Part shown: piece by piece, positions 1 through 64,000 of the stretch | Layout of the letters: every line of letters starts with the position of its first letter | How positions within the stretch are numbered: the first letter of the stretch is position 1 | Source of the DNA: a phage | Sequence record: PQ478073.1 | Strand: one strand, 5' to 3' | Length of the DNA: 64,000 nucleotides | Program-made: the position numbers and the translations under genes | The notes under the pieces: model-generated | What the model was told of the DNA's origin: nothing | What the model saw: only the letters and a program-made list of their open reading frames with translations | The model's database searches: none

Positions 1-36
1 ACGGATTCTACTATAGTATCGCTGTCCAATAAATCA

Positions 37-252
37 ATGGATACTTTCCAATTCATCTATACCAGTACTGATAACATTGAAGAAATTGAATTTCAAAACA
101 ATACATTAAGTCCATGTAGTAGTGTTATAACCTTTATGTCATATCTATGGTCAACTAAAACAAGTGCTGTTGTATATAGTTCAAATTATACACAAGATAG
201 TATTGTTGAATCATATAAAGTTCTAAAGGAATACTATGAAAATAACAAATGA
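37..252 (+). CDS. hypothetical protein; frame is open to position 1, so the gene may start upstream of the window
   Basis: ORF track; ATG at 37; frame open from window edge. Confidence 0.45.
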   Translation: MDTFQFIYTSTDNIEEIEFQNNTLSPCSSVITFMSYLWSTKTSAVVYSSNYTQDSIVESYKVLKEYYENNK

Positions 253-817
253 TTTTATTAAAAGTGTAGTACACCCTATGCTTAGTATTATGAAAAAAAT
301 ACAGAATCTACCGGAAGATAACGATTACAAGTTTAATCGTTTTGATTCAGATGTGTTTTGTATTGAAATTGAAATTAATAACAATCGCAATTTACATTTA
401 AAATTCAAAGAATCTTCGAGTCCGTACTACAACTTTGATATGAATTTTAAAATAGATACTGACATTGAAGAAAACATAATATCAAATCATACTAGCAAAA
501 ATGGTTTTATGCATAGAACTACTATGTACAATAATAAAAATAGTATTATATCTAAATGGAATCAACAATTCACTAAAATTTGTGAAATTGAATATAATGA
601 TTTTGGTGAAGAACATTACTTTCAGTTAAGTACAATTCATGAACTTCCACCATATGATTATGTTAAAACATGGTTTGATATTCATAATATAATTGATGAT
701 GCAATCAAACTTCCATTTGGTGTGTCAATATCATATACTGCTCCTAAAACATTTGTTTTTACTGAAGATATGATTATGAAAAAGATATGGGCAATTATCC
801 CACTTATGATGGATTAA
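236..817 (+). CDS. hypothetical protein, dispersed paralog family F (shared EEHxFQLSTxHxL motif)
   Basis: ORF track; AAAGGA RBS before ATG; motif EEHYFQLSTIHELPPYDY. Confidence 0.65.
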   Translation: MKITNDFIKSVVHPMLSIMKKIQNLPEDNDYKFNRFDSDVFCIEIEINNNRNLHLKFKESSSPYYNFDMNFKIDTDIEENIISNHTSKNGFMHRTTMYNNKNSIISKWNQQFTKICEIEYNDFGEEHYFQLSTIHELPPYDYVKTWFDIHNIIDDAIKLPFGVSISYTAPKTFVFTEDMIMKKIWAIIPLMMD

Positions 818-823
818 ATTCGT

Positions 824-848
824 ACCAGGGGTTGACTCTGGTATTTTT
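824..848 (+). terminator. putative rho-independent terminator
   Basis: short stem ACCAG/CTGGT followed by T-run. Confidence 0.35.
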
Positions 849-878
849 GTATGATACATTGTCCTAAAGGAGAATTTT

Positions 879-1430
879 ATGAACTACAATCATGATCTTT
901 TTACATTATGTGCATCCAAATGTGTTGATGGATGGACAGATAAAATCAATACCATAATTCATCGATATCTGGTCTTTAGTTCTCGTGCACGAAGTGAGGG
1001 GGCTATGGATTTCAAATATACACTATCTATTGATGGTGTAACTATCCATGCAGACGAAGAACGTCTGAGCATTAATTTGTATGATTCCTGTGTATTTGCT
1101 ATTCACCAAAAGATGGGGAAAGGATGGGGTTGTAATAACATTAACTCAAAAGCTATCTTTTGGGTTGGTCACCACCAGACAGTACTTGATCCTTCAATCA
1201 AATCTAATCTTTTATCCGATAATATGGTTTATGATTTATTGTACTCCGAAGAACAACATTTTCAGTTAAGTACATTACATGATCTGGCACAGTACGAGGA
1301 TTGTTACAAAACATTAGAACTATGCCATTCCCTTGAACTTAAAGATAAATTGATACAAGTTTACCCTTCATTCTTTCATGAAGAAGTACAAAGTACACTA
1401 GATCATATTTTATATGGATACGATAAATGA
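879..1430 (+). CDS. hypothetical protein, paralog family F
   Basis: ORF track; AAGGAG RBS; motif EEQHFQLSTLHDLAQYED. Confidence 0.7.
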   Translation: MNYNHDLFTLCASKCVDGWTDKINTIIHRYLVFSSRARSEGAMDFKYTLSIDGVTIHADEERLSINLYDSCVFAIHQKMGKGWGCNNINSKAIFWVGHHQTVLDPSIKSNLLSDNMVYDLLYSEEQHFQLSTLHDLAQYEDCYKTLELCHSLELKDKLIQVYPSFFHEEVQSTLDHILYGYDK

Positions 1431-2029
1431 GAAAAAGTTATCAAGAAGCTATTGACTTAATTCGTGAAGTTATCAAGGTGGCTCCTGCTGCTATTGAGTT
1501 CAAGAAGTCCATATACAAGAAGTATGGGTCAATGTCGAGTATGTGCTTTCAAAAGAAACGTAGAGCATTCACTACCCAGTACTGGAATGATTCTATCATC
1601 CTGAGCAATGAGACTCAGCGTATTTTAACACTAGAATCTGAACCTAATGAGTACGGGGAAGGGAACATTTGTGTACCTGATTATGATGAAATTAACTTCA
1701 ACTGCGGTGATTTTGAAACAACATTATTACTTCATGAGGGTTATCCAGAAGGTGATGTATTAGCTGAGTACAATCCAAAAACTAAAATTCTCAAAAGAGG
1801 AATCCAGTTCACTATTAATAACAAAGATGATGTTCAAGCAGCACTGATGCAACTGAGTACAAGTGAACCTATCACTATTAGTGTAGAAGAGTTATGGGGA
1901 ATTATTTCGGTACTCAATGAGTGCTACAAAGTAAAATCATTGCGTAAACACAGCATTATATTACATACCAATATGGCAAATATAAAATGTAAGCACATTC
2001 AAGAAATGGTGGTTCCAGATGGACTTTAA
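1427..2029 (+). CDS. hypothetical protein
   Basis: ORF track; ATGA start/stop overlap with upstream gene. Confidence 0.65.
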   Translation: MRKSYQEAIDLIREVIKVAPAAIEFKKSIYKKYGSMSSMCFQKKRRAFTTQYWNDSIILSNETQRILTLESEPNEYGEGNICVPDYDEINFNCGDFETTLLLHEGYPEGDVLAEYNPKTKILKRGIQFTINNKDDVQAALMQLSTSEPITISVEELWGIISVLNECYKVKSLRKHSIILHTNMANIKCKHIQEMVVPDGL

Positions 2030-2603
2030 AGAAATTGAAAGTAAATTAAAGTACTTCAAAGATATCAAACTTCTTTGGAAAAAGTATAAAGTTGATTACA
2101 ATTTCAGTGATGATGAGACAATAAAATACATTGAGATTAATATCAAAATCAAGTTCAAGAATAATAATTATGGTGAAGTAACCTTAAATCATACTGGTAT
2201 ATCACTCAAGGACTATGATGGTACAACACTCGCATATTTTGACTTCACACCAGAACCAGGTGAAACACTACTTAGTGAGATAAATTCCTATGACATGGAA
2301 GTGTTCGGCGGGAATCCGTTACTGTTCCGACTTTCTGAAGAGTGGAGTGAAGAGTACTACACTTACAAAGATGGTGTAGTACTTGACATTCATGGAGAAG
2401 TTGTGAATGACTTGGAAGAACGTTTGTTCCAAGAATTGTGTGTTTCAAATACTTCATATGCATACAATCATATCCTTGACATGTTTGATTTATATAGTAA
2501 AATAGATGCTGAAATGAAGGCACATGGTATTCATTACCTTACAATTAACGACTATGCTCAACTCGAAACCGCTGTGAAAGCATTGACTAAAGTACTGAAA
2601 TAG
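2019..2603 (+). CDS. hypothetical protein
   Basis: ORF track; + strand tiling. Confidence 0.6.
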   Translation: MDFKEIESKLKYFKDIKLLWKKYKVDYNFSDDETIKYIEINIKIKFKNNNYGEVTLNHTGISLKDYDGTTLAYFDFTPEPGETLLSEINSYDMEVFGGNPLLFRLSEEWSEEYYTYKDGVVLDIHGEVVNDLEERLFQELCVSNTSYAYNHILDMFDLYSKIDAEMKAHGIHYLTINDYAQLETAVKALTKVLK

Positions 2604-2612
2604 GAATGAAAT

Positions 2613-62403: not shown

Positions 62404-62708
62404 AAAAATTATTAGTTCCGTTTATTTCTTTTTTAATTATAAGTGGATGTGCCGAACAAGTAAAACTACAATCCCCTGCACCAATTAAACAAGAAATTCT
62501 GTTAGAAAGATGTGATGATGATACACCTCTACCACAAAAAATTATGATTGACAAAAATGGTTTTAAAGGTTATGATGGTGCAGAAATTCTTAAAGTACTT
62601 ACTCGTTGGGATGCAGTCTACAATGAATGTGCTTTAAAACACGACGCATTGATTAAAACTATTCGTGATTTACAAGGTAAAGATATTAAAATCAATATCA
62701 AGGAATAA
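62400..62708 (+). CDS. putative o-spanin lipoprotein (Rz1-like)
   Basis: signal peptide with lipobox IISGC; ATGA coupling. Confidence 0.45.
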   Translation: MKKLLVPFISFLIISGCAEQVKLQSPAPIKQEILLERCDDDTPLPQKIMIDKNGFKGYDGAEILKVLTRWDAVYNECALKHDALIKTIRDLQGKDIKINIKE

Positions 62709-62709
62709 A

Positions 62710-63321
62710 ATGAACAAATATCATGTTTACTATACGACAAAATTATCACTTCTTGAAGAATTAAATCAACGAAGTACTAAGATGAAACGCTACACTTTAA
62801 ATGGTATTACTTTTCGATATTTCCCACAAAAAGTTCTTACTTTTGTTAAGAATCCAAAATGCGTGGCATGTGGGATTGAAGCTACTGAAGTACGCATTGA
62901 ACGTTCATTATGTTCTGATCCAGTATATGGTAAACCACATTTAAATGTATATGCTGTATGTGGTCTTTATGAAGTTTTAATGACAGTTGACCATAATCAT
63001 CTGGCATCTAAGGGTGGACCTGATTTAGAGTCAAACTTTAATACTATGTGCTCCAGATGTAATCAACTACGTTCGAATAAAACTGAAACAGTTGATGAGT
63101 TTCTTGAGAAAGTTAAAGGTCGTAATCTTCTCCAAGAACATATGAATAATTTCTTTAATGTACAAAAAAAGAAAAATAACATTGACAAGTCGAAACTACT
63201 AGAAGAACGTAGGTTACGTCAAGAATTATGGGAAACTGATCATCTATGGCATGTTCGAGAGTTTGGTCGTCATATGAAAGCTTTGAAAAAAGAACAGAAG
63301 AAATTGAATAAACATGATTGA
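62710..63321 (+). CDS. HNH endonuclease (free-standing)
   Basis: VDHNH ... N ... CSRCNQ pattern; AAGGA RBS before ATG at 62710. Confidence 0.7.
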   Translation: MNKYHVYYTTKLSLLEELNQRSTKMKRYTLNGITFRYFPQKVLTFVKNPKCVACGIEATEVRIERSLCSDPVYGKPHLNVYAVCGLYEVLMTVDHNHLASKGGPDLESNFNTMCSRCNQLRSNKTETVDEFLEKVKGRNLLQEHMNNFFNVQKKKNNIDKSKLLEERRLRQELWETDHLWHVREFGRHMKALKKEQKKLNKHD

Positions 63322-63334
63322 TATGATATTATAG

Positions 63335-63363
63335 GGACTTGAGTATTCAAGTCCTTTTTTTTT
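63335..63363 (+). terminator. rho-independent terminator
   Basis: stem GGACTTGA/TCAAGTCC then 9-T run. Confidence 0.7.
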
Positions 63364-63374
63364 GGAGAAAATAA

Positions 63375-63731
63375 ATGAAATCTAAAATCTTTTTACCACA
63401 ATTAATGTGGCATCTAGCAGAGTTAGATGAAAATGATGAATATACGGACTATGGTGCATGGGATGACAGTACTGAAACTTTTAAACCAGATGTAAAATAT
63501 AAAATCATCTGCAATGAAAGCAAAGGACACAAAAGGTGGACTGAAGAATTTGATCTCGTATTTCTTGACATGAGCACAAATAAGTTTTATCATTGTACTT
63601 ATGAACGAGGTTTAACAGAAGATAGACCAGTACAACCATTCAGTACTGAAACTGATGGTGTTAAGTGCAATGAAGTTTCTGTTACCAGAGAAGAAATTAT
63701 CACTTATCGAACTTTGTGGAAATATTTGTAA
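63375..63731 (+). CDS. hypothetical protein
   Basis: ORF track; GGAG RBS. Confidence 0.55.
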   Translation: MKSKIFLPQLMWHLAELDENDEYTDYGAWDDSTETFKPDVKYKIICNESKGHKRWTEEFDLVFLDMSTNKFYHCTYERGLTEDRPVQPFSTETDGVKCNEVSVTREEIITYRTLWKYL

Positions 63732-63732
63732 A

Positions 63733-64000
63733 ATGCTTAAAGAATTAGATTTTTCAAACTTAGAAATTATCAGTGCTGTAAAAAACATTTCCGATATGGG
63801 AGATGAGAAAGCAGTTCTTGTTACTATTACTTTTGTAAAAGAAAAAGATAGCTATAGCCATTTAACTGGTATTGAAGAACTAATTCATAAAACCAATCTT
63901 GAGAATGATGGTAAACTCATCAAGCTTCAGGCTTCATATACGCAAAAAACGTCAAATTTTATAGACCTAAATAATGTAGTCAAGGTGGTATACAATCATC
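63733..64000 (+). CDS. hypothetical protein, 3' end beyond window
   Basis: ATG after upstream stop; frame open to window end. Confidence 0.4.
   Translation, partial: MLKELDFSNLEIISAVKNISDMGDEKAVLVTITFVKEKDSYSHLTGIEELIHKTNLENDGKLIKLQASYTQKTSNFIDLNNVVKVVYNH

Follow-up and report, generated by a model that had tools for sequence, protein, structure and literature searches.

Short words kept by selection at high density throughout a genome, Chi and KOPS among them, are read by DNA-processing machines, and words of this type distinguish self from foreign DNA or orient enzymes. Davison and Brunel are said to have found in 1979 that the first-step-transfer terminal repeat of phage T5 is free of EcoRI sites. 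In cyanobacteria the highly iterated palindrome HIP1 (GCGATCGC) has been described, with a reported periodicity of 10–90 kb (Xu, Lawrence & Durand 2018, PMC5861425). Methyltransferases assigned to the palindrome AGTACT are known from other viruses, such as mollivirus (PMC7253447).

The same hexamer was analyzed here in a window of 64,000 nt of phage DNA (sequence record PQ478073.1), the whole stretch under study, which shares 99.6% identity with Escherichia phage 121Q (Asteriusvirus) over the 8 kb compared. Encoded in the genome of 350 kb are a primase, helicase and recombination set of T4 type, T4-type topoisomerase II subunits, translation factors and tRNAs of the phage's own, one of them tRNA-Ser(ACU), and true E. 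coli Chi sites are separately enriched 15x in the phage. No earlier report of AGTACT hyper-abundance in jumbo phages was found in the literature.

Abundance, flanks and reading frames

The window was found to contain exactly 181 copies of AGTACT (one per 354 bp, ~2.8 per kb), an 8.4x enrichment that places it first in frequency among all 6-mers; an earlier note on this DNA had understated the number at about 170. Base composition predicts 21.5 copies, dinucleotide shuffles 16.6 ± 4.1 with a maximum of 28, and an order-3 Markov model 60. The expected number was 33.3 ± 4.8 after shuffling codon order within genes (z = 30.5) and 53.9 ± 5.7 after synonymous shuffling within genes (z = 22.3), and when the synonymous shuffle also kept dinucleotides it was 85.2 ± 6.6 genome-wide (z = 14.5) or 111.4 ± 6.4 within genes (z = 10.9). 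The over-representation claimed earlier is thereby confirmed: the 181 copies, versus 17–21 expected, stand above every codon-preserving null (z 11–30). Across the whole genome 913 copies were counted. The view that restriction-type palindromes are usually avoided and AGTACT is exceptional was also borne out, as the window lacks 26 of the 64 six-base palindromes and GCGC has no copy either there or in the same phage clade.

Many copies are extended, as had been remarked. CAGTACTG occurs 41 times in the window, versus 0.6–0.75 expected, is the top 8-mer of the whole genome and accounts for 202 of the 913 genome sites, and the 10-bp extended palindrome TCAGTACTGA is present in 10 copies (one at 5096..5105, the others starting at 7000, 16675, 18361, 21452, 27939, 43266, 47226, 48235 and 63640). 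Extension past 8 bp is weak. Flank preferences (C...G) are mirror images out to ±4, and strong enrichment is limited to the full palindrome, with 181 AGTACT versus 8 AGTACC and 14 AGTACG in the window.

The flanks bear on the possibility that the phage hijacks SlmA, the nucleoid-occlusion protein of its host, in which case phage DNA would activate SlmA and block cell division. The SlmA binding site, reportedly given by Cho and by Tonthat in 2011 as GTGAGTACTCAC, has an identical 6-bp core, and the enriched clade infects Enterobacterales. However, the flanks required by SlmA are under-represented around phage AGTACT and are the most avoided of all, GAGTACTC being found at 4 of 913 sites (26 expected) versus 202 for CAGTACTG, while GT.AGTACT.AC, with the outer GT/AC of the 12-bp site, occurs once in 350 kb. 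The copies were accordingly rejected as SlmA-binding sites, and the hijack is highly improbable.

Several sites deserve individual description. The intergenic hairpin GGAATCCAGTACTGGATTCC, followed by a T-run (31556..31584, + strand), has AGTACT at the apex of its stem-loop (31564–31569) and is a genuine terminator-like structure (MFE −12.5 kcal/mol, z −3.2), as the earlier note had proposed. Four copies, starting at 8136, 8154, 8204 and 8220, are clustered within 90 bp (8136..8225), and a pair lies 7 bp apart in AGTACTTAGTACT (35312..35324).

All three reading frames are used, with 84 copies as AGT-ACT, 35 as NAG-TAC-TNN and 56 as NNA-GTA-CTN, the Ser-Thr, Gln-Tyr and Val-Leu contexts recognized earlier. 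AGT-ACT is used in 84 of 144 S-T dipeptides (20 expected), NAG-TAC-TNN in 35 of 76 [QKE]-Y-x contexts, and GTA-CTN encodes 74 of 161 V-L dipeptides (28 expected); 175 of the 343 synonymous opportunities for AGTACT in the window (51%) are taken. The dipeptides themselves are raised in window proteins (S-T 1.62x, V-L 1.55x, Q-Y 1.66x), so that AGTACT pressure distorts protein composition, and the proteins bear a certain cost. Since the flanks are mirror-symmetric although the genome is transcribed almost wholly from one strand, the signal is placed at the level of DNA; together with the three frames and the codon-preserving nulls, this upholds the earlier claim that no amino-acid preference is responsible.

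In the window, 175 of the 181 copies lie inside ORF calls and 8 touch non-coding DNA (the tallies overlap). Of the genes with 300 nt or more, 88% carry AGTACT, at positions that are even along gene bodies, and the excess does not arise from a single repeated protein motif, an origin that the earlier note had considered. Counts vary less from gene to gene than chance predicts (under-dispersion, chi2/df 0.61, p 3e-4), and a short-range test disclosed no helical phasing.

Early promoters and exclusion blocks

A 20-kb terminal repeat outside the window is the region densest in AGTACT, and there the word has fixed positions in early promoters. Among early-zone promoters of two genera, defined without reference to AGTACT, 65–72% carry it at −7/−8 or −27/−28 from the −10 hexamer; outside early zones the proportion is 15%. 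Fixed spacing to the −35 and −10 hexamers was found for ~50–60 copies in the repeat, and promoter-embedded copies amount to ~6% of the genome total. AAAAAGTAC is similar to a consensus proximal UP subsite, and ACTG can provide an extended −10 TG. Composite promoter contexts were not found on the + strand of the window, where the loosest pattern gave one reverse-strand match, and AGTACT was rejected as a sigma-70 element (UP subsite or extended −10) in the window, the + strand copies being without the required context. In the accessible part of the published account the promoters of phage CBB are without AGTACT, yet this phage is the most enriched, so promoter use is not general. The promoter positions could alternatively be compatible slots and not operators.

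These data bear on whether the excess is a side effect of repeated cis-elements such as promoters and terminators, or of a single repeated protein motif. AGTACT does belong to reiterated promoter cassettes in the terminal repeat, and it occurs in one window terminator and one CBB terminator. Given the small promoter-embedded share and the location of most window copies in ORFs, this origin is extremely improbable, and for the window it is refuted by the codon-aware nulls, the three frames, the many peptide contexts and the promoter-context search.

Just inside the terminal repeat, also outside the window, are two adjacent conserved blocks of fast-evolving genes, A and B, that strictly exclude the palindrome. 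AGTACT is absent from both in 121Q, EC22.5-2 and TH47, nearly or wholly missing in A4 and present at low density in ph0011. Block B has 45 AGTACA versus 0 TGTACT in 8.3 kb; the variant, always in the sense orientation and found in all three frames, has a density of 5–6 per kb (3–10 per kb across phages), without TGTACT, and the pattern persists when identity of the block protein is as low as 33.5%. Block A, with the same direction of transcription, has 9 TGTACT versus 1 AGTACA, most of these copies having been handed down among the members of a family of tandem paralogues. AGTACA remains raised for ~25 kb past block B, and genome-wide its sense-strand count exceeds that of TGTACT (274 vs 196). 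Symmetric C...G flanks are retained even around AGTACA, and no GC-skew switch was found between the blocks. The strictly one-stranded AGTACA block is not accounted for by a symmetric dimer alone.

A strand-specific replication or translocation signal would account for this polarity. Its unit would be the asymmetric 5'-(C)AGTAC(W) on one strand, read by a primase, a helicase loader or a Chi/KOPS-like translocating enzyme, with the palindrome as an economical two-directional form and only one orientation permitted near a fixed start, beside the terminal-repeat boundary. The opposite bias of the two blocks under one direction of transcription, the AGTACA excess beyond block B, the encoded T4-type replication and recombination set and the 15x enrichment of real Chi fit such a signal. 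It remains doubtful because AGTAC before C or G is as frequent as expected in the window, only the full palindrome being strongly enriched, and because it offers no reason for the exclusion of the palindrome from the blocks; tandem inheritance in block A, the lack of a skew switch and the symmetric flanks at AGTACA also weigh against it.

The sense-strand location of AGTACA in all frames of block B, its genome-wide sense excess, the transcription of almost every AGTACT copy and the encoded translation factors and tRNAs, including tRNA-Ser(ACU), would suit a signal in RNA. AGUACU would then be the tag by which a phage RNA-binding protein, ribosome factor or nuclease recognizes phage mRNAs, the palindrome putting the word in sense RNA for either transcribed strand and AGUACA serving as the block B variant. 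This is unlikely, as RNA needs neither palindromicity nor mirror-symmetric flanks, copies precede transcription starts, lying at −35 and within promoter spacers, and block A, transcribed from the same strand, has the variant of opposite sense.

Conservation and candidate readers

In a relative at 97% identity, 94.2% of AGTACT sites were kept, versus 87.9% of background 6-mers (p 0.01), while 8 sites were gained and 8 lost; at 50–59% protein identity 26% were kept, versus 9.4% of same-composition controls (p 4e-9). Single sites turn over, exemplified by the two copies of AGTACTTAGTACT, both missing in the 97%-identical relative EC22.5-2, while density is stable across genera at ~1 copy per 350–400 bp. 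The ratio of observed to expected copies (O/E) is 5.4–10.6 in Asteriusvirus, RaK2-like, CBB and IMG/VR relatives, highest in CBB, and the excess is common to Rak2-like phages of Enterobacterales. It is missing from a T4-like phage (O/E 0.6) and from PA5oct (O/E 0.1), which the accessible part of its source places in the same broader group as these phages.

The clade-wide occurrence, site turnover and balanced gains and losses, as well as the encoded methyltransferases, could reflect a neutral drive, in which a phage repair or methylation-linked process turns near-matches into AGTACT without benefit, by analogy with the very-short-patch repair that creates CCWGG excess in E. coli. However, none of the 18 one-mismatch neighbours of AGTACT is depleted, most being at or slightly above codon-aware expectation, and the sites are conserved above controls and under-dispersed. 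Moreover, the blocks are palindrome-free down to 33.5% protein identity, with AGTACA accumulating instead, so a genome-wide bias cannot account for the exclusion, and neutral drive is quite unlikely. Conservation above controls, even spacing and undrained neighbours support the conclusion that AGTACT is under natural selection and not a product of mutation bias. The earlier note had suggested that the motif is functional or modified, and the first half of this suggestion is supported by the conservation, held density, even spacing and block exclusion.

In one 50-kb sample of E. coli K-12, AGTACT occurs at 0.06 per kb and GCGC at 6.8 per kb, and the corresponding values for the phage are 2.6–2.8 and 0, that is, ~45-fold fewer AGTACT in this host sample. 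Judging by its promoter positions and the block exclusion, the word is evidently noticed by some factor. The reading tentatively favoured is that AGTACT is a selection-maintained double-strand recognition word of Rak2-like Enterobacterales jumbo phages, read by a clade-specific protein and probably labelling phage DNA. The reader would be a clade-encoded, two-fold-symmetric, sequence-specific protein, either a DNA-binding protein or a DNA methyltransferase. On the contrast with the one host sample, the dense array may mark phage DNA as self, with the complete lack of GCGC, a common word in the host, as its complement. Together the two words might form a code that stands in for base hypermodification, by which T4-type phages let their own machinery distinguish phage from host DNA. 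In early promoters the AGTACT reader would occupy the sequences flanking −35 and −10, and early transcription might be switched in this way.

The only visible candidate is the Dam-family N6-adenine DNA methyltransferase annotated in the window (121Q gp417; 9672..10193, + strand; Pfam PF05869, E 7e-32), the sole sequence-specific DNA enzyme recognized there. As reader or modifier of AGTACT it is an unproven candidate, and nothing links it to this word in particular, its homologues being widespread among phages. Pfam scans of the window ORFs tested (four, ten and ten) gave no DNA-binding or extra methyltransferase domain. The C5 methyltransferase of the genome is DNMT3/CpG-like, so AGTACT cannot be its target, and no ScaI-like endonuclease or methyltransferase cognate to AGTACT was identified.

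Another symmetric reader could be the phage type II topoisomerase or the host gyrase, for which AGTACT would be a preferred cleavage or binding site. Both are two-fold-symmetric enzymes with a 4-bp stagger that A|GTAC|T would fit, and sites spread over the 350-kb genome would ease decatenation and packaging. The palindrome with its GTAC core is evenly spaced, and T4-type topoisomerase II subunits are encoded, but we know of no topoisomerase with such sharp 6-bp specificity. The exclusion blocks and promoter positions would be left unexplained, and PA5oct, of the same broader group according to the accessible part of its source, avoids AGTACT; a topoisomerase site is very unlikely.

Comparison with known systems

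AGTACT is a classical type II recognition palindrome of the ScaI type, and the rest of the phage genome is strongly palindrome-avoiding, as in restriction-site avoidance, but the sign is opposite for this word, which is 8-fold enriched. The AGTACA block is strand-polar as Chi and KOPS are. Chi and KOPS words, however, are asymmetric and strand-skewed genome-wide, whereas AGTACT is palindromic and directionless, with more than ten-fold the density of Chi (1 per 350 bp). It was rejected as a polar word of this type, being its own reverse complement, and only AGTACA in block B is polar (45:0).

Like T5, the phage has a large terminal repeat packed with pre-early genes and a short word whose presence depends on where it lies with respect to the repeat. 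In T5 the site is missing from the first-entering repeat, whereas here the repeat is densest and the exclusion zones lie just inside.

HIP1 and AGTACT are both short palindromes, hyper-abundant against composition-aware expectation, present genome-wide in all frames of coding DNA and in non-coding DNA, and conserved between genomes above matched controls, which indicates maintenance by selection. The fold-enrichment is ~8x for AGTACT versus 15–300x for HIP1, and unlike HIP1 AGTACT is also embedded in promoters, is kept out of certain zones and has a variant tied to one strand. HIP1 is a different word in a cellular chromosome, while AGTACT is 6 bp, AT-rich and viral; as the word is not GCGATCGC and the genome is not cyanobacterial, AGTACT is an analogue of HIP1 and not a member. 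Jointly with the recognition-word reading, and with the same reserve, AGTACT may be regarded as a viral counterpart of bacterial highly iterated palindromes and genome signature words.

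AGTACT is enriched in the window, with symmetrical flanks

The hexamer AGTACT was found by exact count to occur 181 times in the window and is the top-ranked of all 6-mers, the next two specific 6-mers by count, CAGTAC and GTACTG, being its extensions. Expectation was 21.5 copies from base composition, 60 from an order-3 Markov model and 16.6 ± 4.1 (maximum 28) from dinucleotide-preserving shuffles, and the excess of this palindrome claimed in the earlier note was borne out in every particular. Gene-aware nulls were built from 117 + strand ORFs, which make up 93% of the window. 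Against the 181 copies observed, shuffling of codon order within genes gave 33 ± 5 (z = 30.5), synonymous codon shuffling within genes 54 ± 6 (z = 22.3), and synonymous shuffling that keeps dinucleotides 85 ± 7 genome-wide (z = 14.5) and 111 ± 6 within genes (z = 10.9), the codon-aware expectations being inflated by the influence of AGTACT itself on codon usage.

The copies lie in all three reading frames, as had been noticed from the sequence. AGT-ACT writes 84 of 144 Ser-Thr dipeptides (20 expected), GTA-CTN writes 74 of 161 Val-Leu dipeptides (28 expected) and is preceded by NNA in 56 of the 74, and the word is present in 35 of 76 [QKE]-Tyr-[FLSYCW] tripeptides. Overall, 175 of the 343 synonymous-choice opportunities for AGTACT in the window are used. 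The pressure reaches protein composition, with enrichment of the dipeptides S-T (1.62-fold, rank 4th), V-L (1.55-fold, 6th) and Q-Y (1.66-fold, 3rd). A single repeated protein motif or codon bias is ruled out as the source by the codon-preserving shuffles and the use of three frames. AGT is the most used Ser codon of the window (492 of 1446), and 121Q, a close relative, has genes for a tRNA-Ser whose anticodon, ACU, is unusual and pairs with AGU (75,464-75,555), and for a tRNA-Thr(UGU) (77,896-77,969); this suggests that the tRNA set, or the translation apparatus, may be adapted to codons imposed by AGTACT.

Strong enrichment is limited to the full palindrome, the window counts being 181 for AGTACT, 61 for AGTACA, 31 for TGTACT, 14 for AGTACG and 8 for AGTACC. 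Depletion was sought in the 18 one-mismatch neighbours against codon-aware nulls and was found in none, each departing from the synonymous null by no more than about 3 z in either direction. A Vsr-like conversion of neighbours to the motif was rejected for this reason, and a neutral repair drive is very unlikely.

The word is preceded by C (46%) and followed by G (49%) in the window, with weaker T/A preferences further out, and the C...G-flanked 8-mer CAGTACTG has 41 copies against ~0.7 expected. The whole-genome view was obtained from the 350 kb of the relative EC22.5-2, assembled from an unannotated record, which carries 913 copies of AGTACT (119 expected) and 202 of CAGTACTG, more than of any other 8-mer. 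The bases to the left and right of the word mirror each other in frequency out to ±4 in the whole genome despite one-directional transcription, which argues for recognition of the duplex and makes a mark read at the RNA level distinctly unlikely. The G...C-flanked 8-mer GAGTACTC is the core of the host SlmA box and is strongly avoided among phage copies, being present at 4 of the 913 in EC22.5-2 when 26 are expected. With the flanks thus wrong for SlmA sites, a hijack of SlmA is extremely unlikely.

Copies are distributed among genes more evenly than by a Poisson process (chi2/df 0.61, p = 3e-4). At least one is present in 88% of genes of at least 300 nt, the longest copy-free gene measures 651 nt, and positions are flat along gene bodies; helical phasing of the sites was looked for and none was seen.

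Selection on AGTACT, clade specificity and contrast with the host

Over an 8-kb probe (30000-38000 of the window), identity is 99.6% to Escherichia phage 121Q (NC_025447, Asteriusvirus, 348.5 kb) and ~94% to some twenty further Asteriusvirus records; window position 1 corresponds to ~184.3 kb of 121Q, and the + strand carries nearly all window genes. The DNA ligase of the window (26967-28385) is 100% identical to that of another relative, CRJP21, and the window phage is therefore a close, possibly mosaic, relative of 121Q. In a tblastn search the same ligase had a best-segment identity of 92% to a 348,532-bp IMG/VR contig, and judged by these identities the genome of origin probably combines different Asteriusvirus lineages. 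An ORF with a C-terminal WGR domain (41567-42538) and a gene for an RlaP-type nucleotidyltransferase of the RNA-repair pathway (56753-57985) lie close to genes for RNA ligase, polynucleotide kinase, Sir2, Nudix and PhoH, in an RNA-repair and NAD-related neighbourhood.

Between the window and EC22.5-2 (97.3% identity over 47 kb), 131 of 139 AGTACT sites are intact in EC22.5-2, compared with 87.9% of background coding 6-mers (p = 0.01), and 8 sites are private to each genome, so that gains equal losses. Codon alignments of five loci, with orthologues 50–59% identical at the protein level, placed AGTACT at the same aligned position for 42 of 162 window sites (26%) versus 9.4% for hexamers matched in composition (Fisher p = 4e-9, for five loci that are not fully independent). 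On both comparisons, AGTACT sites are under purifying selection. About three quarters of the sites have moved between distant relatives while density is still 2–3.5 per kb, so that the pressure is for density genome-wide and not for fixed positional elements.

The ratio of observed to expected copies is 10.6 in Pectobacterium phage CBB (Mimasvirus), 8.9 in a RaK2-like Klebsiella phage and 5.4–8.9 in IMG/VR relatives whose ligase is 63–67% identical. It is 0.6 in a T4-like coliphage and 0.1 (1 copy in the 25 kb covered) in PA5oct, a Pseudomonas phage more distantly related to the group. CBB and its nearer relatives show a shift of the flanks towards A...T, so that what is conserved is the hexamer preceded by [A/C] and followed by [G/T]. 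In 50 kb sampled from E. coli K-12 there are 3 copies (0.06 per kb, 0.26 times expectation).

The tetramer GCGC shows the opposite bias. Not one copy occurs in the 350 kb of EC22.5-2 (~292 expected), in the window (48 expected) or in 199 kb of 121Q, nor in any AGTACT-rich relative examined, and its frequency is normal in PA5oct (20 versus 16 expected) and the T4-like phage (32 versus 24); the K-12 sample of 50 kb has 6.8 per kb. Its absence and the excess of AGTACT thus have matching phylogenetic distributions, and a GCGC-directed nuclease, self-encoded or of the host, is a possible cause of the absence. Phages are expected to purge restriction-type palindromes. Indeed, 26 of the 64 six-base palindromes, mostly GC-containing, have no copy in the window (5.3 expected each), 24–30 of 64 are missing per clade locus, and GATC, CTAG, TCGA, GGCC, CCGG and CGCG stand at 0.4–0.55 times expectation genome-wide. 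This is a strong signature of restriction avoidance, and the DNA that shows it has genes for methyltransferases of the Dam and CpG types. The clade purges dozens of palindromes, yet a ScaI-type palindrome is the top 6-mer of a 350-kb virus.

Promoter embedding and exclusion zones at the terminal repeat

AGTACT density in EC22.5-2 is ~7 per kb in a 21-kb zone, 2–3.5 per kb in the part containing the window and 1–2 per kb on the far side of the genome. The dense zone is a direct terminal repeat of ~20 kb (29,754-51,028 in EC22.5-2). The CRJP21 record begins and ends at the zone borders, and its position 346,150 repeats position 1 with 100% identity over the 1,351 bp tested, which gives a repeat of 20,152 bp (1-20,152 and 346,150-366,301). 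This early zone contains ~70 tiny ORFs, the majority of which have a promoter to themselves, and ~50 sigma-70-type promoters pointing inwards. Downstream of most promoters, the 5' untranslated region forms a GC-rich hairpin (GGGGAGAAnnnTTCTCCCC), and the layout is reminiscent of the first-step-transfer region of T5. The E. coli Chi octamer GCTGGTGG is ~15-fold over-represented in EC22.5-2 (28 copies in 350 kb versus ~1.9 expected); nine + strand copies fall within the terminal repeat, and two in opposed orientation are situated ~580 bp from the left end of the genome. In the window the octamer lies at 17568 and 25505 (+) and at 8928 and 61062 (-).

Within the repeat, AGTACT overlaps the -35 element as AAAA-AGTACT-TGCAA, occurs as AGTACT-A-TTGACA, or stands directly upstream of the -10 element as AGTACT-G-TATAAT or AGTACT-GG-CATAAT, and some promoters have both a -35 and a -10 copy. 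Of promoters identified blind to the motif, 72% bear AGTACT in the early zone of Asteriusvirus and 65% in its RaK2-like counterpart, compared with 15% of promoter-like sequences elsewhere, and the copies cluster at -7/-8 and -27/-28 from the -10 hexamer. The use of AGTACT in promoters is real in two genera. The positions may in part be compatible slots: ACTG is able to supply the TG of an extended -10, and AAAAAGTAC resembles a consensus proximal UP subsite.

Promoter-embedded copies number only ~50–60 of the 913, the + strand of the window has no match to the composite contexts (one reverse-strand match was obtained with the loosest pattern), and AGTACT was not found in the published CBB promoters that were inspected; promoter use therefore cannot cause the global excess. 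The hairpin at 31556-31584, to which the earlier note had drawn attention, is a genuine terminator-like stem-loop with AGTACT at its apex, and it is the only terminator of the window with the word. With no + strand copy of the window in a promoter context either, an origin of the excess as a by-product of such cis-elements was rejected for the window and is left with next to no probability.

Beside the repeat, EC22.5-2 has two adjacent AGTACT-free stretches of 5 and 8.3 kb, here designated blocks A and B. Block A (50.9-55.9 kb; ~155.5-159.5 kb in 121Q) starts exactly at the internal boundary of the terminal repeat and is a tandem array of ~18 paralogous genes of ~70 residues each, without a single AGTACT. 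A conserved Ala/Gly-Val-Leu position is written GCT-GTA-CTG in this array, producing TGTACT, where an A-ending codon would make the palindrome. A 2.4-kb segment with 15 copies separates it from block B (58.3-66.6 kb; ~162-169.3 kb in 121Q), whose ~17 genes gave no Pfam match. Block B has at most one AGTACT and no TGTACT, and its top 6-mer is AGTACA, with 45 copies; this variant is found in every frame (18, 17 and 12, plus 7 intergenic) and retains the C...G flanks.

The tetranucleotide signature of block B is distinct (r 0.40 versus 0.74 ± 0.05 for random 8-kb chunks). A recent, un-ameliorated import was rejected as the origin of the motif-free blocks: the same layout is found in 121Q, TH47 and A4 and, more weakly, in ph0011, and persists down to 33.5% protein identity, the value for a block-B protein in A4, at which synonymous positions are saturated. 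Selection thus favours the palindrome across most of the genome, disfavours it in the two blocks and, in block B, favours a variant confined to one strand. On this pattern, a neutral mutational origin would be very hard to reconcile with the three kinds of selection together, and some machinery tells AGTACT from AGTACA and from TGTACT.

Block B is also the reason for retaining the view that the word is a one-strand replication or translocation signal, such as a primase pentamer, with the palindrome as its bidirectional form. The half-words CAGTA and AGTAC are at expectation outside the palindrome in the window, no GC-skew switch indicative of a replication origin was seen between blocks A and B, and we consider this view unlikely.

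Candidate readers, possible function and comparison with known words

A density held across genera at measurable protein cost implies a molecular reader and a genome-wide function. Given the demonstrated enrichment and symmetry of the word, the selection on it, its clade specificity, its embedding in promoters, the exclusion zones and the contrast between phage and host, we tentatively propose, as the reading with the best support but at somewhat less than even confidence, that selection maintains AGTACT as a recognition word in duplex DNA for a two-fold-symmetric protein specific to the clade. The reader that we infer may be a binding protein or a methyltransferase, and the word would serve as a dense self-label, complementing the exclusion of GCGC. 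The window encodes a Dam-family N6-adenine methyltransferase (gp417 of 121Q; 9672-10193, + strand; PF05869, E 7e-32) with homologues widespread in phages. A second methyltransferase near it, as listed for phage Sharanji, was not found by Pfam in 10 downstream and 5 upstream ORFs, nor did a Pfam scan of the tested window ORFs (sets of 4, 10 and 10) disclose a DNA-binding domain. In 121Q, gp91 (62,483-63,343) is a C5-cytosine methyltransferase of 286 residues. Among solved structures its best matches are catalytic domains of eukaryotic DNMT3, which rank before M.HaeIII and M.HhaI, in agreement with reported CpG methylation in RaK2 (PMC3622015). Being CpG/DNMT3-like, gp91 cannot act on AGTACT and was rejected as the reader.

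A more far-reaching possibility, which we regard as doubtful, is that in Rak2-like jumbo phages base hypermodification is replaced by a sequence-encoded identity code, consisting of AGTACT every ~350 bp, an AGTACA dialect, the forbidden GCGC and dedicated phage readers of both words. AGTACA would then be a directional dialect of one early gene block, a GCGC-directed nuclease might, for example, destroy host DNA, and an AGTACT reader might protect, organise or regulate that of the phage; this would amount to a new class of self/non-self discrimination by viruses. A topoisomerase site has a slight probability, and what remains is left for something outside the explanations considered here.

Should AGTACT be a self-label acting with GCGC exclusion, as we propose, it would show how giant phages that are not hypermodified separate their own DNA from that of the host, and would offer a tractable system for the long-standing question of the purpose of highly iterated palindromes. 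The word runs counter to palindrome avoidance, is conserved across genera and is directly testable, the AGTACT-free blocks and the AGTACA block being natural internal controls. The clade comprises therapeutic-candidate phages with >80% of genes without an assigned role, and practical uses include ScaI or RsaI fingerprints, clade k-mer signatures in metagenomes and design rules for phage engineering.

Neither enrichment nor methylation of AGTACT was found to be reported for these phages in the open-access literature (RaK2, CBB, Sharanji, jumbo-phage reviews, and giant-virus and marine methylomes). Compared with restriction sites, the bias of AGTACT is opposite in sign, and the Chi and KOPS words are polar, whereas AGTACT is non-polar except in block B. 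Of described phenomena, the cyanobacterial HIP1 comes closest, likewise a hyper-abundant palindrome for which selection has been demonstrated, without known function (PMC5861425). AGTACT shares the generic properties of HIP1, but it is a different word and occurs in a virus, and is thus an analogue and not a member.
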